This document shows positions 4,415 to 25,231 of a stretch of DNA of 32,000 bases, in pieces. The position numbers and the translations under genes were made by a program. The notes under the pieces are model-generated. The model was not told the DNA's origin and made no database searches. It saw only the letters and a program-made list of their open reading frames with translations. Within the stretch, counting starts at the first letter, position 1, and every line of letters begins with the position of its first letter. This DNA comes from Nitrospirota bacterium (GTDB lineage Bacteria; Nitrospirota; UBA9217). The DNA is taken from assembly GCA_020052615.1 (NCBI GenBank), contig JAGVOT010000122.1, forward strand, positions 1-32,000, given 5' to 3'.

Positions 4415-5350
4415 ATGCCATCAAAAAAGAAAACAAAGCCCGACCTCTCGGTGGACTTCGCCGGGATCAGGCTCAAGAACCCCGTGCTGACCGCGTCGGG
4501 GACCTTCGGGTACGGCGAGGAGTTTGCCGATATCATCGACCTGAACCGGCTGGGCGGCGTGATCGTCAAGGGTATTTCGCTCAAACCGATCACGGGCAAT
4601 CCGCCGCCGCGCATCTGGGAGACGCCGTCGGGCATGCTGAACGCCATCGGGCTCGAGAACCCGGGCGTGGACGTCTTTCTCCGGGACAAGCTTCCCTTCC
4701 TCCGGAACTATGATATCGCTGTCCTCGTGAACATATTCGGGTACTGCCTCGAGGACTACGTGGGCGTTGCCGAGCGGCTTGACGGCGTCCCCGGCGTGTC
4801 AGGCCTCGAGGTGAACATATCCTGCCCCAACGTGAAGGCCGGCGGCATCGTGTTCGGCACGGATCTCAAGGCGGCCTTCGAACTGCTCTCGGCGGTCCGC
4901 AAGGCCACCCGGCTGCCGGTCATCGCCAAGCTTTCTCCGAACGTGACGGACATCACCGCGTTCGCGAGAACGGCCCGCGACGCGGGGTGCGACGGGCTTT
5001 CGCTCATCAACACGCTCCTCGGCATGGCCATCGACATCCGGAGCAGACGGCCGAGGCTGGCGAACTGCACCGGGGGACTGTCGGGCCCGGCGATCCGGCC
5101 GGTCGCCGTTCGCATGGTCTGGCAGGCGGCAAAGGCGGTGGACCTCCCTCTCATCGGCATGGGCGGCATCATGACCCATGAGGACGCCCTCGAGTTCATC
5201 CTCGCGGGGGCGTCGGCCGTGGCCGTGGGGACGGCGAACTTCGTCAATCCCCGCGCGACACTGGACATCATCGGGGGCATGGAAGCCTTCCTCGTGCAGG
5301 AAGGCATCGGCAGCGTCAGGGAACTGGTGGGAAAGGTGTGCGTGGCATGA
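4415..5350 (+). CDS. pyrD: Dihydroorotate dehydrogenase, class 1B-like
   Basis: 311 aa; [73 protein letters not shown]-like motif, [12 protein letters not shown]. Confidence 0.96.
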
Positions 5351-6834
5351 GGTTCGTCTCGAGCCTGAAAAGCAAGATCATCCTGGCGGTGTCCGCGATC
5401 CTGGCGGTCATCATCGGGACCGGCACGTGGATCAACATCGGGTACCAGCGGTCCCAGATGGAGGGCGCCCTCGAGGACAACGTCCTGATCATTGCCAACA
5501 CGATCGAGAAGAGCCTGGACAACGCCATGCTTGACGGGAAGAGCAAGGAGGTGCAGCATATCCTCGAAGCCGTCGGGACCTATCATAATATCCAGGAGCT
5601 GAAGATCTTCAGCCCCAACGGCGTGATCCTGAAGGCCTCAAAGCCCGGTCTCATCGGCAGAAAAGTGGACGGCACGACCCAGAAGTGGTATCTCGAGGGC
5701 AAGTTCAAGCGGCCCATCAAGCGCCGCGACGAGGGCGTCTTCTCCGTGCTGTTCCCCATCGAGAACACGGAACGGTGCTTTCACTGTCACGGCTCCAAGG
5801 CGAAACTGAACGGCATCCTGTCCGTGGACGTGTCCATGGCGCAGACGCAGGCGAAGGTCGGCGAGCTCAGCAAGACCATGGTCCTCTGGGCCTTCGGCAT
5901 CACGGCGACGCTTGCCCTGTCGCTGGGCATGTTCCTGACCAGGTTCGTCACGAAGCCGATCCAGGACCTGATCGCCACCATGGAGCGTGCGGAGCGGGGG
6001 CTGGAGGCGCGGGTGCAGGTGAAGAGCTCCGACGACATCGGACGGCTGGGCGAGGCGTTCAATTCGCTCCTGTCCAAGCTGGAGCGGGCGCGCCGCCGCG
6101 TTGAACGGTATCATTACGAGCAGATGAAGAGGGCTGACCGCCTGGCGTCGATCGGCGAGATGGCGGCCGGCATCGCACACGAGATCAAGAACCCCCTTGC
6201 GGGCATTGCCGGCGTGATCCAGGTGCTGAAGAAGGACCTCCCGCCGGGGGAACCGAAGCGGGCCGTGCTGGACGAAGTGCTTTCCCAGGTGGAGCGCATG
6301 GACAAGGCCGTCCGAAACCTCCTGTCCTTCGCCCGGCCTCCGGAACCCAAGATGACCCTCGTGGATGTCAACGAACTCATCGCCAAACTGCTCGATTTTC
6401 TCGCTCCGCAGTTCGCGAAGCATGGGATCGCGGCGGAACGGAAGCTTAGCACGGGACTGCCCTGGCTCGCTCTGGACCCCGACCTGCTGCAGCAGGCCCT
6501 TCTGAACATCTCCCTGAACGCCATCAAGGCCATGCCCGAAGGAGGCAGCTTCTCCATTGAAACCCGGCTGGAACTGCCGGAAGGAACGGGTCAGGGCGCC
6601 ATCAGGATCATTTTCTCGGACACCGGCGAGGGGATCCTGCCGGAGAACCTGGGCAGAATATTCAGTCCGTTCTTTACGACGCGCCAACAGGGTACGGGGT
6701 TGGGACTGGCCATTACCCAGCGGATCGTCGAGCAGCATAATGGGGAGATCAGCGTGATGAGCACTCCGGGACGGGGGACTTCCTTCACGATCAGCCTCCC
6801 GTTGTCCGTGAGCGAGCAGGCACAAGGAGCGTAG
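5347..6834 (+). CDS. Membrane sensor histidine kinase (TM-sensor-TM-HAMP-HisKA-HATPase) with a CXXCH haem motif in the extracytoplasmic domain
   Basis: [15 protein letters not shown] just before TM2; HAMP; H-box [20 protein letters not shown]; N-box [14 protein letters not shown]; SDTGEGI; [13 protein letters not shown]. The supplied ORF starts at 5338; ATG at 5347 looks more natural. Confidence 0.94.
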
Positions 6835-6839
6835 GGACT

Positions 6840-8207
6840 ATGCCGCAGAAGATCCTGGTCATTGATGATGAAAAACTGATCCGCTGGACCCTGGAACAGC
6901 ACCTTGCAAAGGAAGGGTTCGAGGTGGTGACCGCGGATTCCGCGGAGAAGGGGCTCGAGATCATCAATGAGGATGCTCCGGACCTCATCCTTCTCGATAA
7001 CCGCCTGCCGGAGATGACGGGTCTCGAGCTCCTGGAGCAGTTGAATGTGCCGGAGCGGGGCCTCATGGTCATCATGATCACCGCGTACGGGCTTGTGGAA
7101 ACAGCGGTCAGGGCGATGAAACTGGGCGCCTACGACTACATCAGCAAACCCTTTAACCTCGAAGAGATCACCTTCGTGATCCGGAAGGCCATGGAGGCGG
7201 GGTCGCTCCGGTACCAGGTAAGGCAGCTGCGGGACAAGGTCAACACGATCATCGGAGAGAGCGACCAGATGGTGCAGGTGAAGAACCTCATCCTCAAGAT
7301 CGCCAAGAGCGACGCGACGACGGTGCTGATCCAGGGTGAAAGCGGTACGGGGAAGGAACTGGTGGCCAAGGCGATCCATTACAGCAGCGCACGGGCCGAC
7401 AAGCCGTTCATGGCCATCAACTGCGCGGCGCTGCCGGTCACGCTGCTGGAGACCGAGCTCATGGGCCATGAAAAGGGGGCGTTCACCGACGCCAAGGCGG
7501 CAAAGAAAGGGCTGTTCGAACTTGCCGACGGCGGCACCCTGTTCCTTGACGAGATCGGCGACATGGACCTGAGCATGCAGGCCAAACTTCTGCGTATTCT
7601 CGAAGAAAAGACCTTTCGCAGGGTAGGGGGGGTCAAGGATATCAAGGTGGATGTACGGGTCATTTCCGCAACGAACCAGGATCTTTCGACTACCCGGAGC
7701 GACATCCGGTTCCGGAAGGACCTCTACTACCGACTTCAGGTGGTCCCCATCCTTCTGCCGCCGCTGCGGGAGCGGGGACAGGATGCACTTCTTCTCGCAC
7801 GGCATTTCACCGATTATTTCAGCCGGGAATGCCACAAGAGCGTCAAGGGGATATCCAAGGACGTGGAGCGTGTGCTGCTGTCCTACCACTGGCCGGGGAA
7901 CGTGCGGGAGCTCAAGAACGTCATCGAGCGGGCCATGATCTTCGATGTCGAACAGGAGCTCCTTCCGGAGCACATTCCCCAGGAGATCATGGAGTCCGGG
8001 ACGGTACCGGTCGTGCATGCTGAATCTGCCATCTCGCTGGATTGTCTCGTCATACCCGAGACGGGGATATCCATTGAGGATGTCGAGCATGCCTTGGTCA
8101 AGAAGGCACTGCAGATGGCAGGAGACAATCAGACGCGTGCGGCTCAGCTGCTCAGGATGCCCCGCGACGCGTTCCGGCGGAGGATGAAGCGGTTTGGACT
8201 GATCTGA
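6840..8207 (+). CDS. NtrC-family sigma-54 dependent response regulator
   Basis: Receiver KILVIDDEKLIRWTLEQ...LILLDNRLPEMTG; AAA+ GESGTGKELVAKAIHYSS, GAFTDAKAAKKGLFELADGGTLFLDEIGD; C-terminal Fis-type HTH (AAQLLRMPRDAFRRRMKRF). Confidence 0.96.
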   Translation: MPQKILVIDDEKLIRWTLEQHLAKEGFEVVTADSAEKGLEIINEDAPDLILLDNRLPEMTGLELLEQLNVPERGLMVIMITAYGLVETAVRAMKLGAYDYISKPFNLEEITFVIRKAMEAGSLRYQVRQLRDKVNTIIGESDQMVQVKNLILKIAKSDATTVLIQGESGTGKELVAKAIHYSSARADKPFMAINCAALPVTLLETELMGHEKGAFTDAKAAKKGLFELADGGTLFLDEIGDMDLSMQAKLLRILEEKTFRRVGGVKDIKVDVRVISATNQDLSTTRSDIRFRKDLYYRLQVVPILLPPLRERGQDALLLARHFTDYFSRECHKSVKGISKDVERVLLSYHWPGNVRELKNVIERAMIFDVEQELLPEHIPQEIMESGTVPVVHAESAISLDCLVIPETGISIEDVEHALVKKALQMAGDNQTRAAQLLRMPRDAFRRRMKRFGLI

Positions 8208-9428: not shown

Positions 9429-9481
9429 GCGTTCCTTTGTTCGTGAGACCGCCTCTTCATGCCCGGAGTGTCCCGAATGGA

Positions 9482-10273
9482 TCAATAGACCTCTTTCAGA
9501 TGACAGAGCTGACAGTCATAGAACGGGAACGCGACCTTGGCGTGACAGCTGCCGCAATACTTGCCGGCGAAGATGTCCTGCATATTGTACTTGGTGGCGC
9601 CCTTCTTGGCTCCGAAGATCTCGGGATGGCAGAGTTCGCATCCGTTGATGTCGGCGTGGATCTTGTGGGAGAAGATGATGTCCGGCATGCCGAGGATCGT
9701 GGACTTGATGTCGAAGTCCTTTGGCCGGGGAATGTCCTGCCGCTTGATGGAAATTCCTTCGACCTGGTCGCTGAGCTTGATGAGGTTCTTGTCAGCGGCC
9801 TTCATCCAGTCGACCCGGTTGCCGAACCGTGCCGGCGGGAAGCCCTTCAGGAATTCGTTGAAATCCTTCTGGTTCTTCACGTCCTTGCCGTAGGAGTGGC
9901 AGCGTTCGCAGTTCTGGACCTCGGTTACCAGCTTTTCCCGCGTTGTGGGACCGAAGGCCTCTTTGCCGTTATGGCAAGACCCGCAGTACAGGTGGTTCGT
10001 GTTGTCGGCTTCCCTGATATCGCTGCCGCCGGCCTCCATTGCGAATCCGAGATCGACATGGCAGACCCTGCAGGTGTATTTGGCCCGATGGATCCAGTGT
10101 TTGAATACGACCGGCGCGATGTTGTTCTTCTCGGAATAGTTATTGATGATGACATTGCCGAACTCTTCGGGCCGCGGCATTCTCTTCTTCGTGCCGAAGC
10201 TGCTGGTGGCGGCGATGCCTATGGATGCGAACACGAACAACAGTAGAGCGATGATCAGGACTTTGCGATTCAT
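9482..10273 (-). CDS. Hexahaem c-type cytochrome, exported
   Basis: Six CXXCH: CRVCH, CGSCH, CERCH, CELCH, CGSCH, CQLCH. Signal peptide MNRKVLIIALLLFVFASIGIAA. Confidence 0.92.
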   Translation of the reverse strand: MNRKVLIIALLLFVFASIGIAATSSFGTKKRMPRPEEFGNVIINNYSEKNNIAPVVFKHWIHRAKYTCRVCHVDLGFAMEAGGSDIREADNTNHLYCGSCHNGKEAFGPTTREKLVTEVQNCERCHSYGKDVKNQKDFNEFLKGFPPARFGNRVDWMKAADKNLIKLSDQVEGISIKRQDIPRPKDFDIKSTILGMPDIIFSHKIHADINGCELCHPEIFGAKKGATKYNMQDIFAGKYCGSCHAKVAFPFYDCQLCHLKEVY

Positions 10274-10412
10274 TTTGTGGTTCTCCTTCCTAATTGCCTA
10301 ATTGGTGCGGCGTGATAACGTGAACACGATCAATTGTCGGGCAGGACGCTGGGGCCCGGCGCGCAGACTCCCGTGATGCGGATACGAAAATGCCTTATGC
10401 TCCTTTAAAAGA

Positions 10413-10549
10413 TCTTTGACACTGAAGACCCTGAGAACGGCTATGATAACTGCGGATACATCGATTCATTATCATGCCTCTTCATAAGAAGTCATCCGCC
10501 ACTTCTGTGTCAAAGAATCCAGGATCCTGATTTTCTTTGACACGGAAGA
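10413..10549. promoter_or_regulatory. Three-copy motif TCTTTGACACNGAAGA (10413-10428 direct, 10503-10517 inverted, 10533-10549 direct) that could form alternative hairpins
   Basis: 10503-10517 TTCTGTGTCAAAGAA and 10533-10547 TTCTTTGACACGGAA are complementary with one mismatch over 15 nt; the loop contains the palindrome CAGGATCCTG. 10413-10428 TCTTTGACACTGAAGA is a further direct copy. Confidence 0.55.
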
Positions 10550-10551
10550 TA

Positions 10552-12012: not shown

Positions 12013-12054
12013 AGGTTTTGTCCGAAAAGCCACGAAAGTCTATCAGAATATACG

Positions 12055-12087
12055 AAAAAAATCAAATGGTTCGCCCGATCATTTGAT
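12055..12087 (-). terminator. Candidate rho-independent terminator overlapping the stop codon of the TPR gene
   Basis: Minus strand reads ATCAAATG-atcgggcgaac-CATTTGAT-TTTTTTCG: perfect 8-bp stem followed by a T run. Confidence 0.5.
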
Positions 12088-13377
12088 CTGCTTGATGAAC
12101 TGCTTCAACTCAGCGTCGTTGGGAGCTATCTTGAGCGCCCTTTCCCATGTCTCGCGGGCCTTGTCCTTCTTCCCGATCGCGTAGTAGCCCGAGCCCAGGC
12201 GTTTCCAGGCGAGAATATTGTCGGGCTGAAGTTCGATGACGATCGTGCACTCCTGGATCGCAAGGTCGTATCTTCCTTCATAGATGTGGTTCAAGGCGGC
12301 AAAGAGGTACTGGTCGACGATGTTCATGTCGCCGACCGGCGCTTCCATGGTGCTCAGGATCGACACATACTTGAGCTCAAGAAAGCCTTTGACGGCGATG
12401 GTGAGCGAGGACGGGTTCAGCTGGAATGCGTACCAGGCTCCCGCCATCGAAGCCTTGCGGTTGCCGTCAGCGGCGATATAGTTGCTCATTGCTTTCCGCA
12501 TCATGTCGCCGGCCTGGCCCTTTTCATCGATCCTGAGCGCGACCTTGACGACATCGTCGAGGCGAGAGAGCATGGTCTTGACATCGATATCGGTCGGGTT
12601 GTCGGAGAGGATCTTGTTGTAATAGTCCCGCGCGATGATGTAGTCGCCCCGCTCGTAGGCCTGCCTCGCTTCGGCGTAAGTCGTTCCCATCTTCTCTTTC
12701 ACAGCGGATGCGATATAGCGCGATGCGGCTTCCTGCGACCCGTCGATCTCCAGGATCTTCCTCCATTCGGCAATGGCAAGATCGTATTTCTTTTCCTTCA
12801 TGTATGCATCTGCCTGGTCGTAATGCTTCTTGGTGCGCACATCGACGACGTTGCTCTTTGCATTGTTGTACAGACTGCGGGCCTTGCCGTCATAGGGCCG
12901 GACCACGAGGATCTTTTCCAGCTCGTTCAATGCCGACTTGTAGTCGCCATCCTTGATGAACTGCTCGGCGTGCTGGTACATCTCGTTGGTGGTCTTGTCG
13001 GTGATGAGGTTCTTGGTGATGTCGATCAGGTTCGCGAAGCGCCGGTCATCGGGGTTCATCTTCAGAAGCTTGTCCCAGACCTCGATCGCCGCCGCGTAAT
13101 TCTCGTTCTGAAAGGCCTCGGCGGCGTCCTTGCAGAAGGGCTCCATGACCTGCTGTCTGGCGATGGCCTGGTACCGGGAAGCTGTCTTGTCAAAGGGATC
13201 GATCGCCAGGATCTCGTTCAGGAGCGGGCCCGCCTGATCGAACTTGCCCTCTTTGAAAAGGACGACGACCTCTTTCTTGAGCTGTTCGATCCGTTCAAGC
13301 TGCTTCGGTGTGACAGCGTCCGCCCCGGTTGCGACGGCGAGAACGAGTATTGTGATAAGTGTAAGGAAGTTTTTCAC
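12079..13377 (-). CDS. Exported TPR-repeat protein
   Basis: 432 aa; signal peptide MKNFLTLITILVLAVATGADA; repeated helical units such as DGDYKSALNELEKILVVRPYDGKA, KKYDLAIAEWRKILEIDG, RGDYIIARDYYNKILSDNPTD, EGRYDLAIQECTIVIELQPDNILAWKRLGSGYYAIGKKDKARETWERALKIAP. ATGA overlap with the upstream gene. Confidence 0.85.
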   Translation of the reverse strand: MKNFLTLITILVLAVATGADAVTPKQLERIEQLKKEVVVLFKEGKFDQAGPLLNEILAIDPFDKTASRYQAIARQQVMEPFCKDAAEAFQNENYAAAIEVWDKLLKMNPDDRRFANLIDITKNLITDKTTNEMYQHAEQFIKDGDYKSALNELEKILVVRPYDGKARSLYNNAKSNVVDVRTKKHYDQADAYMKEKKYDLAIAEWRKILEIDGSQEAASRYIASAVKEKMGTTYAEARQAYERGDYIIARDYYNKILSDNPTDIDVKTMLSRLDDVVKVALRIDEKGQAGDMMRKAMSNYIAADGNRKASMAGAWYAFQLNPSSLTIAVKGFLELKYVSILSTMEAPVGDMNIVDQYLFAALNHIYEGRYDLAIQECTIVIELQPDNILAWKRLGSGYYAIGKKDKARETWERALKIAPNDAELKQFIKQIK

Positions 13378-14039
13378 CCGTTTGCCCCTCTGACGATGGT
13401 GATTTCGATGCGCCGGTTCTTTGCCCGCTCTGCGTCGGTCTCGTTCGACGCAGCAGGCCTGAACTCTCCGAGCCCATGGGCGACAAGCCGCTCAGGGGCA
13501 ATGCCCTTGTTGATGAAATAGTAAATGACGCTGAAGGCCCTCGCAGACGACAGTTCCCAGTTTGAATCATACTGAGCGGTGTGTATGGGTATATTGTCCG
13601 TATGCCCTTCGGCGATGACCCTGTTGCTCATGGGTTTCAGCTGTCCGTGCAGATGTTCCAGAAAGGCCCCGATCCCCGGTTTCAGCTCGGCGCTGCCGCT
13701 GTCGAAGAGCGCAAAGCTCTCCATCTTGATCTTGATGTGGTGCGGGGTGATGACGAGCTGGATATTGTCGGTCATCCTGTTCTTTTCGATGAAGTCCCGG
13801 ATGTTCTGCGCCAGCGCGATCTCCTGTTTCATCTGCTTCACCCGCGGATCGTTCGGATTCGTCTCGGCAAGGTCGGAGAGCGCGGTCTCGTATTCCACGG
13901 AACCGGAATAGGAAAAGGCGTAGAACATGATGAAGAGGATGACCAGCGTGAGCATGAGGGTGCTGTAGGGCAGCATCCACAGCTCGGTCTCTTCCAGGTG
14001 CTCTTCGGTGTATTGTACGAACTTCCGGAGTACCGACAT
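13374..14039 (-). CDS. MotB/OmpA-like membrane protein lacking the canonical channel Asp
   Basis: N-terminal TM helix WMLPYSTLMLTLVILFIMFYAFS; OmpA-like domain FALFDSGSAELKPG...AEGHTDNIP...NWELSSARAFSVIYYF...KNRRIEITIV. Confidence 0.88.
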   Translation of the reverse strand: MSVLRKFVQYTEEHLEETELWMLPYSTLMLTLVILFIMFYAFSYSGSVEYETALSDLAETNPNDPRVKQMKQEIALAQNIRDFIEKNRMTDNIQLVITPHHIKIKMESFALFDSGSAELKPGIGAFLEHLHGQLKPMSNRVIAEGHTDNIPIHTAQYDSNWELSSARAFSVIYYFINKGIAPERLVAHGLGEFRPAASNETDAERAKNRRIEITIVRGANG

Positions 14040-14716
14040 TACAGCGTGCTCCTCGCCTGGCGGACCAGGGTGATTTCGATGCGCCGGTTCCGGGCCCGAT
14101 TCACGTCCGAGTCGTTGGGATATGCCGGGTGGAACTCACCGTACCCTGCTGCCACGAGCTGCCCGGGGTCCATGCCGGAGGCGGTGAAAAAATTGACGAC
14201 GCCGACAGCCCGTGCGATGGACAGTTCCCAGTTGGAACGGTACGCGCCTCCGCGGACCGGGATCGCGTCCGTGTGGCCTTCGATGATGATGTCGTTGGGG
14301 AACGCCTCGATCAATCCAACGAGGCTTTCCAGGACATTGACCGTGCCGGGATTGAGCCTGGCGCTTCCGATGGAAAAGAACGTTTCGGGATTCAGGGCGA
14401 TCTTGACGGTCTTGTCCGTTACCGCGATGGTCGCCTTCCCGGAAAGTTGCCCATCCGAGGCCGCCTGCTCGATGCGCTTGATCGCCGCTTCTTCCCTTGC
14501 CATCTTCGCCTGGCGCTCCAGTTCGGCCTGCTCCCGCGCCGATTGGTTGACCACCGTGCTTTCCATGCCGGCGACCACCATCTGCTTTTCCACGGCGGTC
14601 ATGCGCGTCATGGAGAACAGCATAAGGAAGAACAGCATGAGGTTGGTCGTAATATCGGAAAAGATGATCAGCCAGATATTGCCGAACTCTTTCCTTTTTT
14701 CAGTCTGTGCATGCAT
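14039..14716 (-). CDS. MotB/OmpA-like membrane protein retaining the channel Asp
   Basis: N-terminal TM helix WLIIFSDITTNLMLFFLMLFSM with Asp21 in the MotB position; OmpA-like domain FFSIGSARLNPG...IEGHTDAIPVRGG...SNWELSIARAVGVV...RNRRIEITLV. Confidence 0.9.
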   Translation of the reverse strand: MHAQTEKRKEFGNIWLIIFSDITTNLMLFFLMLFSMTRMTAVEKQMVVAGMESTVVNQSAREQAELERQAKMAREEAAIKRIEQAASDGQLSGKATIAVTDKTVKIALNPETFFSIGSARLNPGTVNVLESLVGLIEAFPNDIIIEGHTDAIPVRGGAYRSNWELSIARAVGVVNFFTASGMDPGQLVAAGYGEFHPAYPNDSDVNRARNRRIEITLVRQARSTL

Positions 14717-14748
14717 GCCCGTGTCCGATCCCGTGTAGCTTCTTCCGG

Positions 14749-15519
14749 CTACTTCTGCCGAATATGCGCCATGATGAAAGCGGTCAGTTTCTTCCTCAGG
14801 ATGAGGGGGACGTCGCCCTGCTGGATCGACATGACGCCTTCAGCGATCATCTCCTTGCTGATGATGTCCCGCTCGCTGTGGTCGGTGAGCTTCGTCGCGA
14901 TCGGGATGAAGACGTTCGCCGAGAAGATCCCGTAAAAGGTCGCCGTGACGGCATTGGACATCGCGGCGCCCATGCTGGCGGGATTGGAAAGGTTCCTCAG
15001 CATTTCCACAATGCCCATGAGCGTGCCGAGAAGTCCGAAGATGGGGGCGACCGTGGCCATGGTCCGGAAGGCCCCTGAGACCTTTTGCTGATTGTGGCGG
15101 GTATAGAATATCTCGCGGCCGAGATTGTCCTTGATGACGTCGTGTTCAAGACCGTCAACGAGCATCTGGACGCCATGGACAAGGAATTTGTCCTCCATTT
15201 TCGGTATCTCGGCGGAAAGGGTCTCGATGCCGTCACGACGCGCCTTTTCGGCAAGCGAGGCAAGGTAATCGATCTTGTCCTCCATGTCCTTGTCGGAGTG
15301 CTTGCTGGGGAACAGCATGATGCGCAGGGACGGAATGATCTCCCGCACGACCGACCAGGGATAGGCTATCAGGGTAGCGCTGAACGTGCCGCCGTAGACA
15401 ATGACGAGCGCCAGGGGATTGAACAGCATGTGCAGGATGTTGCCTACCGCCAGAACATACAGGATCGTCAGCAGGATCGCGACGAGCCCGACAATTGTCA
15501 TTTTATCCATTTTTTCCAT
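14749..15519 (-). CDS. MotA-family stator-like proton channel protein
   Basis: MEKMDKMTIVGLVAILLTILYVLAVG..NPLALVIVYGGTFSATLIAYP; cytoplasmic EKARRDGIETLSAEI; VAPIFGLLGTLMGIVEML; TATFYGIFSANVFIPIATKL. Start placed at ATG 15519. Confidence 0.9.
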   Translation of the reverse strand: MEKMDKMTIVGLVAILLTILYVLAVGNILHMLFNPLALVIVYGGTFSATLIAYPWSVVREIIPSLRIMLFPSKHSDKDMEDKIDYLASLAEKARRDGIETLSAEIPKMEDKFLVHGVQMLVDGLEHDVIKDNLGREIFYTRHNQQKVSGAFRTMATVAPIFGLLGTLMGIVEMLRNLSNPASMGAAMSNAVTATFYGIFSANVFIPIATKLTDHSERDIISKEMIAEGVMSIQQGDVPLILRKKLTAFIMAHIRQK

Positions 15520-15520
15520 G

Positions 15521-16942
15521 TTAGTTGTTTTCAACCTCCACAAGGCCTTCGTTGATCAGGCGGCGTACCACGACCATCAGGTTCTGTTTCTCCCGCCGGA
15601 GACGTGTTGCTGAGAGGGGACGGCTGAATTCCATCTCCTGCTTGAGCCGCTCGGCGGCACCGGCGCTCAAGGATGAGAGGACCTTCTGCTGGATGTCCTC
15701 GGAAGAGGTCTTCAGGATCTGGGCGAAGAGCGCGGCCTCGACGTTCCGGGTGAGCGTCTGGATGCCCTGTGCCGGAAGGTCGCGGATGATGTTCTCCAGG
15801 CTCCTGATGCGCTGCTTCAGGCGCGCGGCGGTGGGGGCGTCCTTCGCCTCGAGCGTCTTGACGATCTTCTCGCGGACCTCCTCGTTGGTCATATCGAGCA
15901 GCGTGACCAGCTTGTTTTCGCCGCCCACGACGTAGGTGAGCTTGTTCTTGACCATCTCTTCGAGGGCGGTAACCTTCTCGACGCTGATCTCTTCCTTGCC
16001 GAGGGATATCGCGACCTCGACCTGCTTCTCCTTCGGGAAAAGCTCGAGGAACCGCATGGCAAGGACGGGGTCAAGGTAGTTTGTCACGATCGCAATGTCC
16101 TGCGCCGCCTTGTCCTTCAGGAGGAACGCGAGGCCAGGGAGGTCGCGCTCGCGAACGAAGGAGAAGGGAAGCCCCGCTTCCTGCGCGGAGACGGCTGCGG
16201 CGGCCGCAACCGCGCTGCCTGCCATGACCTCCCGCTCATAGGTCGAGGTATGCTCCACGTTGACGGTCTGTGCCGTAGCACCTCCGCCCCGGATGGCGCT
16301 CCAGTCGATCTCCTTGAGGGCCGGGATCACTTTCTTAAGCGGATCCATCAGGAACAGTCCGGCCATGACCATCATGAAGCCGCCAACGATGGTCAGGATC
16401 AGCCACAGGAAGTTCGGAAGTGCGAAGAGCGTTCGGAAAAAGCCCTTTGATTCGAAGTCAACTTTCTTTACGTTGATCTGGTCGCCCCGGGTCTGGCTGA
16501 ATCCGATCACGTTCTTCGCCATGTCCTCGATAAGTTCCACGATCGACCCCGGAACGCTGCTGTCGATCCAGATGGAAAGGGTGATCTTGTTGACCCGGTA
16601 CTTGCTGCTCCCGGCGCCGAACAACATCTCGGACTGCCCGGCGCCGAACTCCTTCTTTTGCGGAACGCCGGGGAGCACCAGCGCGTTCGTCTTCTTTTTT
16701 TCGAGAAGCTGGTCGCTGCCGCCTCGCGCGGACACCAGCTCGGCATTCACAAAGATGACGACCTTGTCCGTACCGGTTATTTCCTGGATGACCTGTTTGA
16801 GCTTGCGTTCAAGCTGGCTCTCCAGGGAGATCTTGAGAGCATAATCATCATTTACCTCGGCGTGCGACACCGGGACGGCCGTGAGAAGAATAAACATGAC
16901 GAGAAGAAGCAGGAGTGGACTGCGAGTGATTGTTCGAACCAT
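15521..16942 (-). CDS. Exported/membrane FliF(C-terminal)-FliG(M+C) fusion protein
   Basis: Signal peptide MVRTITRSPLLLLLVMFILLTAVPVSHA; FliF/YscJ C-terminal-like segment (LESQLERKLKQVIQEITGTDKVVIFVNAEL...LPGVPQKK...YRVNKITLSIWIDSS...IVELIEDMAKNVIGFSQTRGDQINVKKVDF); TM FLWLILTIVGGFMMVMAGLFLM; then FliG-like PFSFVRERDLPGLAFLLKDKAAQDIAIVTNYLDP...VGGENKLVTLLDM...IRSLENIIRDLPAQGIQTLTRNVEAALFAQILKTSSEDIQQKVLSSLSAGAAERLKQEME...VVVRRLINEGLVEV. Confidence 0.88.
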   Translation of the reverse strand: MVRTITRSPLLLLLVMFILLTAVPVSHAEVNDDYALKISLESQLERKLKQVIQEITGTDKVVIFVNAELVSARGGSDQLLEKKKTNALVLPGVPQKKEFGAGQSEMLFGAGSSKYRVNKITLSIWIDSSVPGSIVELIEDMAKNVIGFSQTRGDQINVKKVDFESKGFFRTLFALPNFLWLILTIVGGFMMVMAGLFLMDPLKKVIPALKEIDWSAIRGGGATAQTVNVEHTSTYEREVMAGSAVAAAAAVSAQEAGLPFSFVRERDLPGLAFLLKDKAAQDIAIVTNYLDPVLAMRFLELFPKEKQVEVAISLGKEEISVEKVTALEEMVKNKLTYVVGGENKLVTLLDMTNEEVREKIVKTLEAKDAPTAARLKQRIRSLENIIRDLPAQGIQTLTRNVEAALFAQILKTSSEDIQQKVLSSLSAGAAERLKQEMEFSRPLSATRLRREKQNLMVVVRRLINEGLVEVENN

Positions 16943-17232
16943 GTTTGTATCCCCTATTAAATTAATTATTGAAAATGGAACGATGTCGGCAAGGGCGATT
17001 GTCGATCAAGCGTCAATTTTGCAACCAGAATATCGATGCAATATATGTACCTGTAGTTTCACACTAATAATTGTTGGATGTGATATTCAAGTATGTGAAA
17101 AATAAGAATTAATTAAAAAATAATTTGCGCCTCTATGGGATTTAACAAATATTTAACCGAGCGAATGTGCTCACCCGGTGCTTGTTAGTGCTCTCTAATG
17201 TTTACGAGTAAGCGTCCCAAATTAGCACAGTG

Positions 17233-19033: not shown

Positions 19034-19348
19034 CTATTTCTCCGCACCCTGTTTCGATTCGATCATGAATTCAAAGAGTGCCCTGCACTTTTTCAACCGC
19101 TGCAGGTAGATCTTTTTCGACGGATCATCGGATGCCTGTATTTCCGGCATCAGCTTGTCCGACCGCTCTATCAGGGAAGAAAGTTCCTTGATGCTCAACG
19201 TATCGGACCCCTGCGTTTTTGAACAGATATCGTTAAAAGAGTCCTTCCAGTTCCCGGCGGCCGAAGGCGTCGGGAACATTGCCAGTGTCAGCAGGAGCAT
19301 CACTGCCAGTCCAAGTATCATGTGTTCTGTCTTTATTTTATTTTTCAT
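19034..19348 (-). CDS. Small exported protein, function unknown
   Basis: 104 aa with signal peptide (MILGLAVMLLLTLAMFPTPSAA); convergent with the RCC1 gene with an 11-nt gap; fills the interval on the minus strand. Confidence 0.65.
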   Translation of the reverse strand: MKNKIKTEHMILGLAVMLLLTLAMFPTPSAAGNWKDSFNDICSKTQGSDTLSIKELSSLIERSDKLMPEIQASDDPSKKIYLQRLKKCRALFEFMIESKQGAEK

Positions 19349-19601: not shown

Positions 19602-19723
19602 ATTAGTTCATAAAATCATGTAGTTATGCTTGATATCCCTATGTTGCAGGAGGCATGTTTATTGCAATTAAATGATAACTACCTGTTGTTATTTCACCTT
19701 GAACATCAAGGAGTTAAACGAAT

Positions 19724-21079
19724 ATGAGGAAACAAAATGCGTTGGGAACGATCTCTCTGGTAGGATTGATCGGATTCCTGCTCATCATTTTTGCTTTTCC
19801 CGGCCATGGCACGTCCCAGACGCCGGCTCCTGCTTCGGAGAGCTGCGTCAGCGCAAATTGTCACGTCACCATGGGCAAGGAGAAGGTCGTCCATAATCCC
19901 GTAAAGGAAGGCATGTGCACGACCTGCCATCTTGCCGCGGATGATCCTCTCAAGAAGACCAGGCATCCAGGCAATCTTGTCATCTCCCTCGTGCAGCCGG
20001 TGGCGGACCTTTGCACAATGTGTCATGAGCCAAAGAACAAGAAAAAGGTCGTCCATGCGCCGATCCAGGGGGGGGATTGTACGTCCTGTCATAACCCTCA
20101 TCAGTCGCCGAACAAAGGCATGCTGAAGGACGTCATGCCGAATATCTGTTTTCAGTGTCATCCGGACAGCATGGTGAAGCATGCCGTCATGCACCCGCCG
20201 GTGGCGGGAGGGGATTGCTCGGGTTGTCATGACAATCATCAGAGCGATTTTCCCAAACGGCTGGTCAATGAGGGGAACGCCCTCTGTTTCCAGTGTCATC
20301 CCGATAAGGAAGAGGGCCTCAAGACCAGGAAGGTAGCCCACTATCCCGTCAAGCAGTCCTGCACCCAGTGCCACAATCCCCATGGATCGTCCGCGAAGGC
20401 CATGCTCACCGCACCGGTACCGGAGCTTTGTTCAACCTGTCATCCGAACGAAGTGATGCTGCGTCAACGGGCCGCCACCAAGCACGGGCCCATGGCCGAT
20501 CAAAAGAGCTGCCGCATCTGTCATGATCCGCATTTCTCCGATCAGCCGCGGCTTCTCGTCACCTCGCAGATGGCGCTGTGTCTTGCCTGTCATGACAAGG
20601 AGCTCGAGACCGGCAAGGGCAAGGTCATGAACATGAAGGCGTTTCTCGAGGCGAACAAGAACACCCATGGCCCTCTGAAGGGCGACGATTGTGTTTCATG
20701 CCATAATCCGCACGGCTCGGACTACTGGAGGATCCTGGTGAAGTATTATCCCCCGGATTTCTATGCGTCCTACTCCGAGGGGAAGTATGCACTGTGTTTC
20801 TCCTGCCACGATAAGGCGGCATTCACGGAGCGGCGCACGAAAACGGCCACGGGCTTCCGTGATGGTGAACAGAACCTCCATTTCGTTCACGTGAACAAGG
20901 TCAACAAGGGGAGGACGTGCAAAGCCTGTCACGAGGTGCACGCGGACAGCGGACAGAATGCACATGTGAAACAATTCGTTGGATTCAGCGGGTGGGCGAT
21001 GCCCATGAACTTCACGCAGGGCAAGGACGGCGGGACCTGTGCGCCGGGGTGTCATGGGGAAAAACGGTACAACAGGTAA
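19724..21079 (+). CDS. Multihaem c-type cytochrome: 13 CX2CH plus one CX4CH and one CX3CH
   Basis: N-terminal hydrophobic segment LGTISLVGLIGFLLIIFAF; first motif CVSANCH (CX4CH), last motif CAPGCH (CX3CH), 13 canonical CXXCH between them (CTTCH, CTMCH, CTSCH, CFQCH, CSGCH, CFQCH, CTQCH, CSTCH, CRICH, CLACH, CVSCH, CFSCH, CKACH). Confidence 0.94.
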   Translation: MRKQNALGTISLVGLIGFLLIIFAFPGHGTSQTPAPASESCVSANCHVTMGKEKVVHNPVKEGMCTTCHLAADDPLKKTRHPGNLVISLVQPVADLCTMCHEPKNKKKVVHAPIQGGDCTSCHNPHQSPNKGMLKDVMPNICFQCHPDSMVKHAVMHPPVAGGDCSGCHDNHQSDFPKRLVNEGNALCFQCHPDKEEGLKTRKVAHYPVKQSCTQCHNPHGSSAKAMLTAPVPELCSTCHPNEVMLRQRAATKHGPMADQKSCRICHDPHFSDQPRLLVTSQMALCLACHDKELETGKGKVMNMKAFLEANKNTHGPLKGDDCVSCHNPHGSDYWRILVKYYPPDFYASYSEGKYALCFSCHDKAAFTERRTKTATGFRDGEQNLHFVHVNKVNKGRTCKACHEVHADSGQNAHVKQFVGFSGWAMPMNFTQGKDGGTCAPGCHGEKRYNR

Positions 21080-21162: not shown

Positions 21163-23124
21163 TTGAACAGACCATGGTCAATCATGATGGCGGCGGCAAT
21201 TGCGCTTACCGTTATCCTCATTGCGTATTCATTCTCGGCGGCCCAACCGGCGACATCACCCTCGATCTCGATCCTGTATCCGAAGCATAATGCCCTGGTC
21301 GGGAAAAAGGTCAATCTCGTCGTTGACCCGGCGACCGACTGGACAGCGGCTCCTTTTCTTCAGGTCGTGGTGGGCAACACCGAATACCCGGTGATCGACA
21401 CATCCGCCGGCCGTCATGCAGTTCAGGGTCTTTCTCTGGAGACGGGATCCAATACGATAACGGTCAGGGTGCTCGCCGTTGTTCCCGGTCCGGATCAGGC
21501 AAAGGGAAACAACCGGGAACAAGAGCAAGCAAAGGATTCTGCGAAAAAGAAGTATACCCAGGTCCTGTCGCGCTCGATTACGGTCTTTAACCGGGAGGGC
21601 AGCTTTGCGACCACTCCGCCGCAATTCACGGCACAACACTTCCATTCACGGGAGCAGGAAGGCGAGTGCTCGGGGTGTCACCGTCTTGAGGCCGAACCGA
21701 AGGATCTCAAGCCGGCGAAGCCTGAAGAGATGCTCTGTTATGCCTGCCACCGCGAGATCCCGACCGGCAGGCACATCCATGGGCCGACGGCGGTCTGGAA
21801 CTGCCTGTCATGCCATAACACCGAGATCTATCCGGTGAAGTACCAGTTCATATCCTACAATCCATGGACGGTCACCAAAACGACGCAGTCCGTGGAGCCT
21901 GCCGTGTTCACCTTGTCCTCTGACGTTCTTTTCAAACCCAAATCGGCCCTGTTCGTGAGCGAAACGTCAACACTTCAGCTCAGCAAGAAAGATCGGAAGA
22001 ACAAAAAGAAGCTTGAGGAGTTTAACAGGGCAAAGGCGGCGGAACTGGCATTAAAGCGCGAACAACAGCGGGAACTTTTTAAGGATTTTCTTGAATTCAT
22101 CAAATTGAATCCAGCGGACAAGATACTGGTCGAGGCCCATGTAGATTCCGGCCATTTTCCGCCCGCAAAAGGGAAGGCGAAGGGATTCAAGAACGATGTG
22201 CAACTGACCGCGGCGCGGGCAAAGGCCCTTGTAAAACTGCTGAAGCATTATGGTGTCGCCGGGAAGAACCGCGTTGCGGCCGCCGGCATGGGCAGCACCC
22301 TGCCGAAGGCGCCCAATACGAGCAAAGAGGGAAGGGAATTGAACAATCGTATTGAGATCGTCGTCTATCCGCCGGACGTCAAGATCAAGAACAGCATGAA
22401 ACTTCCCGTCCTCAAAGACCGGGAGCGGGTGGTCGTAACCATGAGTTATCAGCGGGGTGCCGAGGTCGGAAAACTGGCGGTCACGGAACACCTCCCGAAG
22501 GGATTTCTCTATATGCAGGGGAGCGGGGTATTTCGCGGCGCCATTAAGAACCCGCAGGTCAAAGGAAGCGATCTGACCTGGCAGCTCGGGAATTTCGGCA
22601 CGAATTTCCAGGAGACCCTGTCATTCATCGTTAAAAAAGGGAAAGAGGTCACCGCTCCGTTAAGCCCGGTCGTGAATCTCTCGTTCAAGATCGGTCAAAA
22701 GGACGAGCGATTGACGTTCGATCCGGAAAAGCCGTTCAAACCCGGCCTTACCGTCAAAGAGACCTGCGAAAAGTGCCACATGAGCCTGCTTGCATATCCC
22801 GTCAAGCATGGTCCCGCTGAAGCGGGTCACTGCACGCTTTGCCATGATCCCCATGCCAGCAAGTACCCTTCATGGACCCGTAACCAGTCCTGGCGCCTGT
22901 GCACGACCTGCCACGCTGAGAAAAAGACCGGTGTGCACCTGATCGCGGGCTTTGTTCATGGGGTCTCCCATCCCACGAAAAAATGGCCCGATCCATCACG
23001 GCCGGGAAAGCGCCTCACCTGCGTGAGCTGTCATTCACCGCACAGCTCTCAAACGAAGGAACTCATGGCTTTCGACGTCCGGAACAAATATGAGTCGTGC
23101 AGATATTGCCACGCCCAAAAGTGA
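21163..23124 (+). CDS. Octahaem c-type cytochrome with internal OmpA-like peptidoglycan-binding domain and a DUF11-like beta domain
   Basis: TTG start at 21163 (MNRPWSIMMAAAIALTVILIAYSFSAAQ) behind a GGGGGA SD. CXXCH: CSGCH, CYACH, CLSCH, then OmpA-like domain (FLEFIKLNPADKILVEAHVDSG...NDVQLTAARAKALVKLLKHYGV...NRVAAAGMGSTLP...NNRIEIVVYPP), then DUF11-like LAVTEHLPKGFLYMQGSGVF..., then CEKCH, CTLCH, CTTCH, CVSCH, CRYCH. The supplied ORF upstream of the TTG overlaps the 19724-21079 CDS out of frame. Confidence 0.88.
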   Translation: MNRPWSIMMAAAIALTVILIAYSFSAAQPATSPSISILYPKHNALVGKKVNLVVDPATDWTAAPFLQVVVGNTEYPVIDTSAGRHAVQGLSLETGSNTITVRVLAVVPGPDQAKGNNREQEQAKDSAKKKYTQVLSRSITVFNREGSFATTPPQFTAQHFHSREQEGECSGCHRLEAEPKDLKPAKPEEMLCYACHREIPTGRHIHGPTAVWNCLSCHNTEIYPVKYQFISYNPWTVTKTTQSVEPAVFTLSSDVLFKPKSALFVSETSTLQLSKKDRKNKKKLEEFNRAKAAELALKREQQRELFKDFLEFIKLNPADKILVEAHVDSGHFPPAKGKAKGFKNDVQLTAARAKALVKLLKHYGVAGKNRVAAAGMGSTLPKAPNTSKEGRELNNRIEIVVYPPDVKIKNSMKLPVLKDRERVVVTMSYQRGAEVGKLAVTEHLPKGFLYMQGSGVFRGAIKNPQVKGSDLTWQLGNFGTNFQETLSFIVKKGKEVTAPLSPVVNLSFKIGQKDERLTFDPEKPFKPGLTVKETCEKCHMSLLAYPVKHGPAEAGHCTLCHDPHASKYPSWTRNQSWRLCTTCHAEKKTGVHLIAGFVHGVSHPTKKWPDPSRPGKRLTCVSCHSPHSSQTKELMAFDVRNKYESCRYCHAQK

Positions 23125-23192: not shown

Positions 23193-24200
23193 ATGCTCAG
23201 CTGCCGATTACTCATAACGACCCTGCTCATTGCGGTGAGCAGCGCTGGTTGTGCCTTTATTGCCGGCCAGGACGACCCCGGCGCGCCCGGCGAGGGCGTT
23301 AAACACATCCGGCTCAATTATGTCGAGACGCTGAGGAACCAGGCCAGCCTTCGCGGAGAAGGCTTCCTTGACGTTGTTCACACGGCGGGCACTCCGACGA
23401 CCCTCCAGCGGCCCAACAGCGTGTTCGCCGACGCGTTCCGCGTCTATGTGACCGATCAGGCGCAGCCGCCCCGGGTCTTCATCTTCGACCGTGGCGACCG
23501 CACGGCGAGCATCCTTGCCGTCCCCGTCCCGCCCGCCGCAGGATCGCTCGTGAATCCGCTGGGCATTGCGGTGGACATCGACGGCGTCATCTACGTCGCC
23601 GATGCTCAACAGGGAAAGGTATTCGGCTACGACAGGAACGGGGCGCTGCTCCTGACGTTCGGGAAAACCGGCGACCTTGCTTATCCGACGGGAATTGCCA
23701 TCGATAAAAGAAGGAATCGCATCCATATTGCGGATTCCCATGCGCATTTGGTCAAGACCTTTACGATACTGGGAGAACGGCTTTTTGAGATCGGCGTGGC
23801 GGGTCCCGCCGACCAGCGGCCAAAGTCTCCGGCCGGGATCGCCCTCGACGGGGAGGGGAGGATCCACGTTCTCGACAGCCGGTCCCGACGCGTGTTGATC
23901 TATGATCCCGAAGGCAGGTTCATGAGGTCGTTCCCCCTGTCTCGCGGCGGCGCCGGCGACTCGGTGAAGCCCGGGGGGATCGCTGTGGACTCGGCGGGAC
24001 ATATCTATGTGACGGACAGCGTCAATAACAATATCCTCATCTTCGAGTCCGACGGCAGTTTTTTAAGAACTTGGGGCAAAACCGGGAACTTGAAGGGTGA
24101 TTTCTGGTCGCCCCAGGGTCTGTTCATTGACGAACGCGACATGCTCTATGTTGCAGATCAAACCAACAGCCGTGTCCAAGTCTATCAATTCATAAAATGA
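23193..24200 (+). CDS. NHL-repeat (beta-propeller) lipoprotein
   Basis: Lipobox VSSAGC; repeats PNSVFADAFRVYVTD, NPLGIAVDIDGVIYVADAQQGKVFGYD, KPGGIAVDSAGHIYVTDSVNNNILIFESDGSFLRTWG, SPQGLFIDERDMLYVADQTNSRVQVYQFIK. Confidence 0.9.
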   Translation: MLSCRLLITTLLIAVSSAGCAFIAGQDDPGAPGEGVKHIRLNYVETLRNQASLRGEGFLDVVHTAGTPTTLQRPNSVFADAFRVYVTDQAQPPRVFIFDRGDRTASILAVPVPPAAGSLVNPLGIAVDIDGVIYVADAQQGKVFGYDRNGALLLTFGKTGDLAYPTGIAIDKRRNRIHIADSHAHLVKTFTILGERLFEIGVAGPADQRPKSPAGIALDGEGRIHVLDSRSRRVLIYDPEGRFMRSFPLSRGGAGDSVKPGGIAVDSAGHIYVTDSVNNNILIFESDGSFLRTWGKTGNLKGDFWSPQGLFIDERDMLYVADQTNSRVQVYQFIK

Positions 24201-25231
24201 TTGTGAACACGACCCGTCTCAGCGCGTATGCATCGGTAGTTGTTGCGCTTGCATTGATGTTCCTTGCTTCCTGCGGACCTCCCCCCCGGCCACCGGAGCC
24301 GACCGACCTGTTCTGGCCGCTGCCTCCGGATCTTCCGAAAATACAATATGTCAAGTCGATCTACAATGAGGACGATATCGGCCGTGTCTATACGCTGAAG
24401 GAAAAGCTCTTCGGCAAGGATTACTTGGACAGTCTGACCAGGCCGTACGGTGTTCATACGCGGCGCGGCATTATGCTTGTTTCAGACATTTCCCGGCGAA
24501 GGGTGCTTCTCTTCGATCTGGTGAACAAGCGGCTTCGTGTCCTGGGAGACGACGGTGCTATAACGACGCCCGCGTCCGCCGCGACGGACCTCTCCGGAAC
24601 CATCTATGTCGCCGATACCGGCGGGTCCAAGATCGCTGTCTATGGTCCCGATGGGGCCTATCGGACGGCATACATCTTCAAGGGGAGCAGGCTGGTGTCC
24701 GTGGCGCTCAACGAAGCACTGGGACGGGTGTACGCCGTGGACCGTGAGGGCCATCGTGTCGTTGCTTTTGGACTTGATGGACGTCATCATTTTGAGTTCG
24801 GAGGGCGGGGAAGCGCTGACGGGAAGTTCAATTACCCTCTCGATATTACGGTTGCCGCCAACGGCGATGTGTATGTGCTTGACGCGGGCAACTTCCGGGT
24901 GCAGATCTTCTCGGCGGAAGGCAGGTTCCTGTCCAAGTTCGGGTCGGTAGGCGACCGTCCGGGCATGTTCGCCAATCCCAAGGGGATAGCTGTCGATTCC
25001 GAGGGCCATATATACGTGACCGATGCCGCTTTCAGCAACCTTCAGATATTTGATCGTGAGGGGAATGTCCTTCTCTTTATAGGACAACTTGGTCCCCGGC
25101 GGGGTGATTTTCATCTCCCCGGCGGGGTCTCCATTGACGAGAACGATCGGATCTACGTTGCCGATCAAATGAACGGACGAGTCCAGGTGTTCCAGTACCT
25201 GAAAACGCAAGGGTCGACCAGCACGCCATGA
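24197..25231 (+). CDS. NHL-repeat (beta-propeller) lipoprotein, paralogue of the preceding gene
   Basis: Lipobox LASC; repeats GTIYVADTGGSKIAVYGPDG, YPLDITVAANGDVYVLDAGNFRVQIFSAEGRFLSKFG, NPKGIAVDSEGHIYVTDAAFSNLQIFDREG, LPGGVSIDENDRIYVADQMNGRVQVFQYLK; ATGA overlap with the previous gene. Confidence 0.9.
   Translation: MIVNTTRLSAYASVVVALALMFLASCGPPPRPPEPTDLFWPLPPDLPKIQYVKSIYNEDDIGRVYTLKEKLFGKDYLDSLTRPYGVHTRRGIMLVSDISRRRVLLFDLVNKRLRVLGDDGAITTPASAATDLSGTIYVADTGGSKIAVYGPDGAYRTAYIFKGSRLVSVALNEALGRVYAVDREGHRVVAFGLDGRHHFEFGGRGSADGKFNYPLDITVAANGDVYVLDAGNFRVQIFSAEGRFLSKFGSVGDRPGMFANPKGIAVDSEGHIYVTDAAFSNLQIFDREGNVLLFIGQLGPRRGDFHLPGGVSIDENDRIYVADQMNGRVQVFQYLKTQGSTSTP

Follow-up and report, generated by a model that had tools for sequence, protein, structure and literature searches.

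The gene at positions 21163..23124 (+ strand) of a 32,000-nucleotide stretch of DNA from a Nitrospirota bacterium (contig JAGVOT010000122.1, positions 1 to 32,000; the window in what follows) encodes an octahaem cytochrome that carries an OmpA-like peptidoglycan-binding domain in its interior, and is referred to here as the OmpA-cytochrome. This domain and the DUF11-like beta-sandwich that follows it make up a cassette of about 300 amino acids (aa) which, judged by comparison of the sequences, was inserted into a widespread octahaem family at the junction of haems 3 and 4. It is considered reasonably probable that the protein is a peptidoglycan-tethered periplasmic octahaem electron relay, bound to the wall by the inserted OmpA domain. 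Among the functions suggested in an initial annotation of the window was a 'wall-anchored electron conduit', and this would also be the reading favoured here, given the retained Asp/Arg pair and NRxE motif of the domain and the multihaem/NHL operon to which the gene belongs. The whole picture is drawn from the sequences and structure models of uncultured organisms.

The gene occupies a single uninterrupted frame of the + strand, open from 20917 (stop-to-stop) to 23124. There are two start candidates, a TTG at 21163, giving 653 aa, and an ATG at 21184, giving 646 aa; a GGGGGA Shine-Dalgarno-like run is found 6 nucleotides (nt) 5' of the TTG. Residues are numbered here according to the 646 aa form, counted from the ATG. 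With either start the protein has a Sec-type N-terminal signal (MMAAAIALTVILIAYSFSAA, followed by QP), which is hydrophobic and has no lipobox Cys. The signal peptide covers aa 1-22 (21184..21249), with probable cleavage after SAA, based on the sequence, the low model confidence over aa 1-25 and the AxA-like sites of the orthologues.

An AlphaFold2 (AF2) model on the family alignment, with a mean predicted local distance difference test score (pLDDT) of 77, gives the layout of the protein. After the signal (aa 1-22) there is an N-terminal beta-sandwich (aa 28-136; 21265..21591), which model and alignment show to be common to the short octahaem relatives described below, and then a tri-haem segment (aa ~150-222; 21631..21849), the OmpA-like domain (aa 228-395; 21865..22368), a second beta-sandwich (aa 413-513; 22420..22722) and a penta-haem segment (aa 521-646; 22744..23121), all on the + strand. 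The initial annotation had parsed the protein as three plus five CXXCH motifs around an OmpA-like domain, and Pfam, AF2 and Foldseek agree that this is correct.

Exactly eight CXXCH motifs are present. Those of the tri-haem segment are CSGCH, CYACH and CLSCH (C162, C185 and C207), and the segment ends in PxKY(Q)F, the insertion point. The penta-haem segment, an MtrA/DmsE-like doubled-CXXCH region, contains CEKCH, CTLCH, CTTCH, CVSCH and CRYCH (C528, C550, C573, C613 and C639). All eight haem motifs are kept in 69 full-length homologues, and in the alignment of these 69 sequences the motif Cys and His are invariant or at least 90% conserved. The doubled-CXXCH family PF09699 matches the haem parts with 86 bits against a threshold of 20.6, identifying a multihaem c-type cytochrome, and haem would be attached to the eight motifs after Sec export.

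The resemblance to decahaem cytochromes of the DmsE/MtrA family stops short of membership, with 48.9 bits against the cut-off of 192.2 for TIGR03508 and eight haems. For the C-terminus, NCBIfam gives sub-threshold matches to the DmsE/GSU2203 decahaem families, and the family profile matches Shewanella MtrA (6r2q_A) over the C-terminal haems with E 7e-10. Conserved His residues outside the motifs are found at positions 154, 199, 542, 557, 585, 596 and 620 and are common to the short relatives. Only these seven are obvious distal ligands for eight haems, so that the distal position of one haem, close to the insertion point, may be filled by an unusual ligand. The sequence PVKYQF (aa 217-222, 21832-21849) lies directly after haem 3; its PxKY does not vary among the long forms and is conserved among the short octahaems as well.

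The identity of the OmpA-like domain is clear from several lines of evidence. The Pfam family OmpA (PF00691) matches aa 292-387 with 34.8 bits, against a gathering cut-off of 27.2, and is found in 67 of the 69 family members, with a best E of 1.9e-16. Over aa 228-395 the pLDDT is mostly above 90, and the AF2 model and Foldseek both give the beta-alpha-beta-alpha-beta-beta fold of OmpA-C/MotB-C. In the PDB, the best Foldseek matches are periplasmic domains of Helicobacter pylori MotB (3s0y, 3s0h and 3s02; E 1e-7, probability 1.00), followed by TssL (4b62), OprF (5u1h), YiaD, TagL and AbOmpA (3td3), the top hits ranging from E 1e-7 to 5e-5. The family profile matches solved OmpA, MotB, TssL and Pal peptidoglycan-binding domains with E down to 5e-12, and NCBIfam matches of the central region are all sub-threshold, to MotB, MotS, TssL, YiaD and YfiB. 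The protein is not a flagellar stator MotB. It has no MotB_plug or transmembrane (TM) match and reaches 38-40 bits with the MotB models of NCBIfam, whose cut-offs are 259-300, whereas both of the neighbouring MotB genes do have MotB plug/TM features. A highly charged helical arm (KKDRKNKKKLEEFNRAKAAELALKREQQRE, aa 263-300, 21973-22086) lies inside the domain, being present in 31 of the 69 relatives and absent from the rest; a long charged helix spans aa 274-308 of the AF2 domain.

The signature residues of the domain are E317-x-H319-x-D321, L341-T-x-A-R345-A346 and N387-N-R389-I-E391. Alignment of the profile to solved OmpA domains (5wtp) equates ExHxD with GHTD, LTxARA with LSxxRA and NNRIE with NRRVE. 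The canonical Asp/Arg pair that binds meso-diaminopimelate (DAP) is thus in place as D321/R345. In OmpA of Acinetobacter baumannii, the DAP carboxylate is reportedly bound by Asp271 and Arg286. Among the 69 relatives, D321 is retained in 61, R345 in 65, N387 in 67 and R389 in all 69. The mean pairwise identity of the OmpA core is 0.49, that of the other domains being 0.42-0.62. That these four residues are kept in 88-100% of sequences at a domain identity of about 49% suggests a retained ligand pocket, probably under purifying selection.

The second half of the cassette, aa 413-513, is a confident beta-sandwich in the AF2 model (pLDDT above 90). Pfam DUF11 (PF01345) has no match in the window protein at E<=0.1 and is weakly matched in 7 of the 69 relatives (best E 3.8e-4). 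The label 'DUF11-like', already given to this region in the initial annotation, is supported by the collinear alignment of the cassette with the OmpA-then-DUF11 arrangement of giant proteins.

The giant proteins were found when the insert of about 300 aa was compared with 1.84 billion representative proteins. Outside the family of the OmpA-cytochrome itself, no cytochromes are among the best 150 matches, which were those examined. The next-best matches are giant DUF11-repeat/OmpA proteins, with 27-29% identity over 181-195 aa (E 1e-18 to 1e-19, 73-78 bits), including P0094 (2198 aa) and P0098 (605 aa), and the insert aligns with their Pfam-annotated DUF11. They have the same contiguous OmpA-linker-DUF11 cassette and the same 'FKN' loop type, but differ in having no haem motifs and in their many DUF11, SdrD_B and CarboxypepD_reg repeats. 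Proteins of this type are the probable donors of the cassette. The two MotB-like genes with OmpA domains that the initial annotation recorded are indeed present, at 13374-14039 (MotB2) and 14039-14716 (MotB1) on the - strand. It had also taken the shared OmpA fold as a link between the two halves of the locus, and this has not been borne out; the OmpA domain of the cytochrome is 27-31% identical to those of the two local MotBs and closer to the giant OmpA-DUF11 cassettes. An origin of the domain by duplication of the adjoining MotB genes is rejected on the same comparison, the MotBs scoring 40-44 bits against 73-78 bits for the DUF11/OmpA giants.

The fusion is conserved. A protein search of 5.8 billion proteins identified about 70 full-length relatives of 583-686 aa with 37-100% identity, nearly all of them with precomputed OmpA and CXXCH Pfam annotation, and the named homologues of the full-length form are from Nitrospirota metagenome-assembled genomes (MAGs). 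A scan of 185,579 species genomes found the long architecture in 13 loci (L001-L013, of which L008 is a duplicate of L003); a further locus, L014, has the long form truncated at its 5' end. The closest of the genome loci is L004, from a 'Nitrospiria bacterium' of Hainich groundwater, at 84% identity. Some nanopore-type contigs (L001, L002 and L086) have fragmented neighbouring genes. A frameshift, a chimeric assembly or a mis-called open reading frame is practically out of the question as the source of the fusion, given one open frame and some 70 proteins from independent sources (NCBI, JGI, ENA and Logan). The initial annotation had named two grounds on which the fusion would be doubted, the lack of an OmpA match and a conserved frameshift or assembly error; the OmpA match is present and the fusion is kept in about 70 independent assemblies.

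The same genome scan found dozens of proteins of about 330-350 aa that match solely aa 1-220 and 524-646. Each has eight CXXCH, and haems 3 and 4 are separated by 22-31 aa, compared with 321 aa in the window protein. This short octahaem family has at least 575 members, which carry generic names only. Its hosts include Thermodesulfovibrionales, Desulfocapsa, Desulforhopalus, Desulfuromonadaceae, Sulfurimonas and other Campylobacterota, Hydrogenimonas, Aquificales, Acidobacteria and Binatia. Insertion-free octahaems of about 320-360 aa, annotated as 'cytochrome c3 family / doubled-CXXCH', share with the long form the N-terminal beta-sandwich, the order of the eight CXXCH, the distal His and PxKY, and usually adjoin a 13-haem cytochrome, often with NHL propellers; they differ in having neither the OmpA nor the DUF11-like domain. 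The short forms match DmsE/MtrA-type models across the junction of haems 3 and 4. The insertion point lies directly after PxKY(Q)F, which is kept in long and short forms alike.

Some close relatives have part of the cassette or none. L015 (467 aa), a paralogue in the same MAG (JBGPHF01) as the full-length L010, has the second beta-sandwich only. In L016 (388 aa) and L017 both inserted domains are absent, and L017 keeps the flanking linkers of the long form, 'DPWKVSK...QP' and 'DPKxP'. A neighbour-joining tree of the shared regions (no bootstrap) places the cassette-bearing proteins in one clade, with L016 beside L012 and L015 beside L010. The single clade, with L016 and L015 nested in it, indicates that the cassette was probably gained once and then lost secondarily in a few cases. 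The pair L010/L015, in which a full cassette and the DUF11-like domain alone are found in one MAG, is a natural pair for the contribution of the OmpA domain.

The OmpA-cytochrome is the second gene of a four-gene core. It is preceded by a multihaem cytochrome of 451 aa (19724..21079, + strand) with 13 CXXCH, one CX3CH and one CX4CH, termed here the 13-haem cytochrome. It is followed by NHL1 (23193..24200, +), a six-bladed NHL-repeat beta-propeller and probable lipoprotein (..VSSAGC), and by NHL2 (24197..25231, +), an NHL-repeat beta-propeller lipoprotein with an LASC lipobox, which overlaps NHL1 by 4 nt. Each of the 14 orthologous loci has NHL1 and NHL2 3' of the OmpA-cytochrome; the 13-haem cytochrome is immediately 5' of it in all 12 loci that reach that far, L005 and L014 being cut off there. 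The gaps in the operon are short or the genes overlap, and a terminator and sigma-70 scan found no strong terminator inside it. Lower-identity 13-haem and NHL genes also accompany the short octahaem family; the partnership of cytochrome and NHL proteins therefore predates the insertion. In the window the start of a gene for a Kup potassium transporter (25228-27042, +) overlaps the NHL2 stop by 4 nt (ATGA). The kup gene is 3' of the operon in several orthologous loci (L003, L004, L006 and L008), and in others it is not.

A sigma-54 -24/-12-like element (aGGCAtgtttaTTGCA, 19651..19666, +) precedes the 13-haem cytochrome gene by 58-73 nt. An element of the form GGCAY-N5-TTGCA is found 35-86 nt upstream of this gene in 13 of 15 loci. 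The sigma-54 consensus is not enriched over the whole window, where 7 were found and 13.5 were expected, so that the case for sigma-54 lies solely in the conserved position of the element upstream of the 13-haem gene. A HAMP/HisKA/HATPase sensor histidine kinase and a sigma-54-dependent response regulator are encoded at 5338..8207 (+), the response regulator at 6840-8207. Because their genes are directly upstream of the operon in seven orthologous loci, the kinase and the sigma-54 activator are the probable regulators of the operon.

From these observations of architecture, conservation, insertion, synteny and promoter element a mechanism can be proposed, in which the continuity of the haem chain, the binding to peptidoglycan and the partners are predictions. 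The protein would be exported to the periplasm by Sec, and eight haems would then be attached. These probably form one continuous MtrA-like wire, because the short homologues have contiguous haems, with the OmpA-DUF11 cassette looping out between haems 3 and 4. The pocket of the OmpA-like domain, given its conserved Asp/Arg, is predicted to bind the meso-diaminopimelate stem peptide non-covalently via Asp321/Arg345. Such binding would fix the wire at the sacculus and make it a static relay, as opposed to a freely diffusing carrier. Together with the co-transcribed 13-15-haem cytochrome and the two NHL lipoproteins, which are candidates for the membrane-proximal ends, it could form a relay across the periplasm and the cell wall, as a module within an extracellular or outer-envelope electron-transfer system. 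The histidine kinase and sigma-54 activator would switch this module on via the -24/-12 promoter. In MtrA, as seen in the MtrCAB structure, each haem accounts for approximately 1 nm. The 8 plus 13-15 haems could on this basis span most of the periplasm.

Several points weigh against a wall-tethered relay. The operon has no gene recognisable as that of an inner-membrane quinol dehydrogenase or an outer-membrane porin. AF2 confidence is low over the haem regions, as is to be expected of a model that contains no haem, so that the adjacency of haems 3 and 4 rests on the short homologues. Within the pocket, the loop from HxD to LTxxRA (D321-L341) exceeds that of Pal/OmpA types by about 8 aa, and the model has low confidence at aa 328-332. 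D321 is lost in 8 of the 69 relatives and R345 is replaced by Gln in 4, in a minority clade, and peptidoglycan binding is therefore not required in every member. The close relatives that have no cassette (L016 and L017) or the DUF11-like domain alone (L015) do without the OmpA domain altogether, which makes the anchor an accessory one.

The constant presence of two six-bladed NHL propellers directly downstream raises the question of whether the inserted domain serves them. The OmpA-like domain of Pal binds the TolB beta-propeller, and TolB-Pal binding competes with peptidoglycan binding. It could be that the insertion is mainly a docking site of this kind for an NHL propeller lipoprotein, perhaps one that toggles between propeller and peptidoglycan, and the sequence matches of the domain include Pal chains of TolB-Pal complexes (2hqs and 2w8b). 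This is nevertheless judged unlikely, as short relatives with no OmpA domain are also linked to NHL genes, making the propeller partnership older than the insertion and independent of it, and the residues that are conserved are those of the DAP pocket.

Slightly less probable again is that the cassette does not bind the wall at all, and is instead a spacer, oligomerisation or surface-adhesion unit from a large surface protein, in which case the cytochrome might reach the cell surface. The cassette has its nearest relatives in giant DUF11-repeat proteins, of a type typical of the cell envelope or surface; the lengthened pocket loop, the loss of D321 or R345 in a minority and the dispensability of the cassette in L015-L017 would also fit. 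Against this, the retention of D321, R345, N387 and R389 described above argues for a kept pocket, all of the solved OmpA-like matches bind peptidoglycan in the periplasm, and no secretion-system signal is evident.

Two further possibilities concern the motor-like module of the window (12079..16942, - strand). It consists of a FliF-C/FliG fusion (FliFG), MotA, a MotB with a TM Asp, a MotB without it and a TPR protein of 432 aa, and is a compact, apparently non-flagellar rotor/stator. The FliFG protein (473 aa) has a signal/TM segment, a FliF-C-like periplasmic region, a second TM helix and the middle and C domains of FliG, and it has approximately 80 homologues at 60-88% identity, mostly in Nitrospirota. 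The tandem MotBs are 35% identical to each other; MotB1 keeps the TM Asp (FSDITT) and MotB2 has Ser/Thr at this position (PYSTLM). This suggests a putative heterodimeric B subunit with a single ion-binding site. Relatives with 42-43% identity (L084, 6182-17594, and L085, 10001-21401) have the five motor genes followed by a gene for a platform protein of the GspF/type II secretion system F (T2SS-F) kind and 5-6 prepilin-type genes (N_methyl, GspH), and no ATPase is visible within 10 kb of these GspF/pseudopilin-type loci. Literature searches brought up no account of FliG/MotAB in the company of cytochromes or pseudopilins, and the motor module may be newer to science than the OmpA-cytochrome.

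The motor module, with the 19-haem and c7 cytochromes described below, adjoins the operon in the window, L002, L003/L008, L004, L012 and L086, and L002 has all twelve genes in a collinear run on a single strand. At least 11 contigs with the OmpA-cytochrome also carry a FliFG gene, including approximately 4 of the 12 contigs above 30 kb, by an indirect pairing of records. A second sigma-54-like element (17037-17052, -) precedes the FliFG gene, and both divergent intergenic regions of the window thus have one; the FliFG element was otherwise found only in L004 and L002. Motor genes are absent from 7 of the 14 orthologous loci (L001, L006, L007, L009, L010, L011 and L013), where the histidine kinase and response regulator come directly before the operon. 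Conversely, L016 has the motor beside an OmpA-less cytochrome, and L084 and L085 have it with GspF and pseudopilins and no cytochromes; on the cytochrome tree its presence is patchy. An obligatory link between motor and cytochrome is rejected by this synteny. The association is real but facultative, and it does not track the OmpA insertion.

As improbable as a cassette that does not bind the wall is a more elaborate version of the relay. The wall-tethered octahaem would be the periplasmic leg of an unrecognised porin-less conduit across the envelope, made up of the 13-15-haem cytochrome, the octahaem and the NHL propeller lipoproteins. In about a third to a half of the lineages this conduit would be coupled functionally to a rotor/stator that is non-flagellar and ion-driven, and proton-motive force might then serve in the assembly, extension or gating of an array or fibre of cytochromes through the wall. 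The rotor/stator would in that case be the FliF-FliG fusion with MotA and a MotB heterodimer with the proton-binding Asp in one subunit. Less probable still is that the OmpA-cytochrome is a scaffold which places the cytochromes by the FliF/FliG-MotA-MotB2 machine and is part of an ion-driven complex. A scaffold positioning cytochromes relative to a motor had been put forward in the initial annotation, and the adjoining loci, the shared contigs and the second sigma-54-like element could be read in its favour, but it does not hold in general, given the seven loci with no motor, the OmpA-less cytochrome of L016, the motors of L084 and L085 with no cytochromes and an OmpA domain that is not derived from the local MotBs.

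The remainder of the window contains further cytochromes. A 19-CXXCH cytochrome (493 aa) and two c7-like cytochromes with 6 CXXCH each (263 and 280 aa) are encoded downstream of the TPR gene (8643-12033, -). In L010, where there is no motor, c7-like genes are found between the two NHL genes. The cytochromes of the window together have 52 CXXCH, or 54 if the CX3CH and CX4CH of the 13-haem cytochrome are counted as well. Between the motor module and the operon there are genes for a secreted Lcl_C and RCC1 seven-bladed propeller protein of 546 aa (17382-19022, +) and for a small secreted helical protein of 104 aa with no Pfam match (19034-19348, -). Both accompany the motor and the operon in L003, L004, L012 and L016, and the RCC1 protein also adjoins the motor in the pseudopilin-type locus L084. 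The window begins on the + strand with carB, greA, pyrK, pyrD and the genes of the HAMP histidine kinase and the sigma-54 response regulator, and at its 3' end NHL2 is followed by Kup and then by a GGDEF protein (+).

It is clear that the components are all of known kinds. MtrA is sheathed by the MtrB barrel and has no peptidoglycan-binding domain. The MtrA/DmsE decahaems, represented by MtrA of Shewanella MtrCAB (6R2Q chain A), share with the protein studied here the doubled-CXXCH haem-wire type and a proposed role in moving electrons across the envelope, but have ten haems as opposed to eight, and no porin or MtrC partner is encoded in the window operon. The OmpA-like domains of MotB/PomB, Pal, OmpA/OprF, TssL and YfiB have the same fold and signature residues, the periplasmic domains of MotB being the best fold match. 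In these proteins the domain is C-terminal on a membrane-anchored or lipoprotein carrier, whereas here it is internal to a cytochrome, has no MotB plug or TM helix with it and has a longer pocket loop.

Clusters for extracellular electron transfer that combine multihaem cytochromes and beta-propellers and have no recognisable porin have been described, for example DFE_0448-0465 of Desulfovibrio ferrophilus (PMC5815863, PMC8322314). Others are the cytochrome and beta-propeller operon of SEEP-SRB1 and Ca. Desulfofervidus, the sulfate-reducing bacteria (SRB) that are partners of anaerobic methanotrophic archaea (ANME) (PMC5539420), and the UetH/I cytochrome and beta-propeller cluster of Ca. Tenderia (bioRxiv 10.1101/2022.05.06.490989). 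The cytochrome island of D. ferrophilus encodes a separate OmpA-family protein, DFE_0455, among its multihaem cytochromes and beta-propellers (PMC8322314). By analogy, the Nitrospirota protein is consistent with a fusion of partners that are separate in D. ferrophilus. The clusters of D. ferrophilus, the SRB and Tenderia differ in haem numbers and gene sets, in having a separate OmpA and in a peptidyl-prolyl isomerase (PPIase) that is not found here, D. ferrophilus being compared by description only. No D. ferrophilus names are among the best 120 matches of the short octahaem family. The polysulfide reductase MccSep was considered as a counterpart and rejected, being a different protein, a pentahaem selenoprotein. 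In full-text literature searches no multihaem cytochrome with an internal peptidoglycan-binding domain came up, and the combination of an OmpA domain with an octahaem is new relative to the literature found.

Two wider results are the definition of a large, as yet unnamed octahaem family, with at least 575 members spread over many phyla that cycle sulfur and metals, and the identification of a sigma-54 regulon for the octahaem module in groundwater Nitrospirota. The relatives with the anchor, with half of the cassette and with none of it amount to a natural experiment.

Models of extracellular electron transfer are weak on how electrons get across the periplasm and the peptidoglycan. The periplasm is roughly 20-30 nm wide, and the systems that have been studied use either diffusing cytochromes (STC and FccA in Shewanella, PpcA-E in Geobacter) or the barrel-sheathed MtrA. 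A haem wire with its own peptidoglycan-binding domain suggests a third solution, in which the relay would be fixed in place, stapled to the wall.

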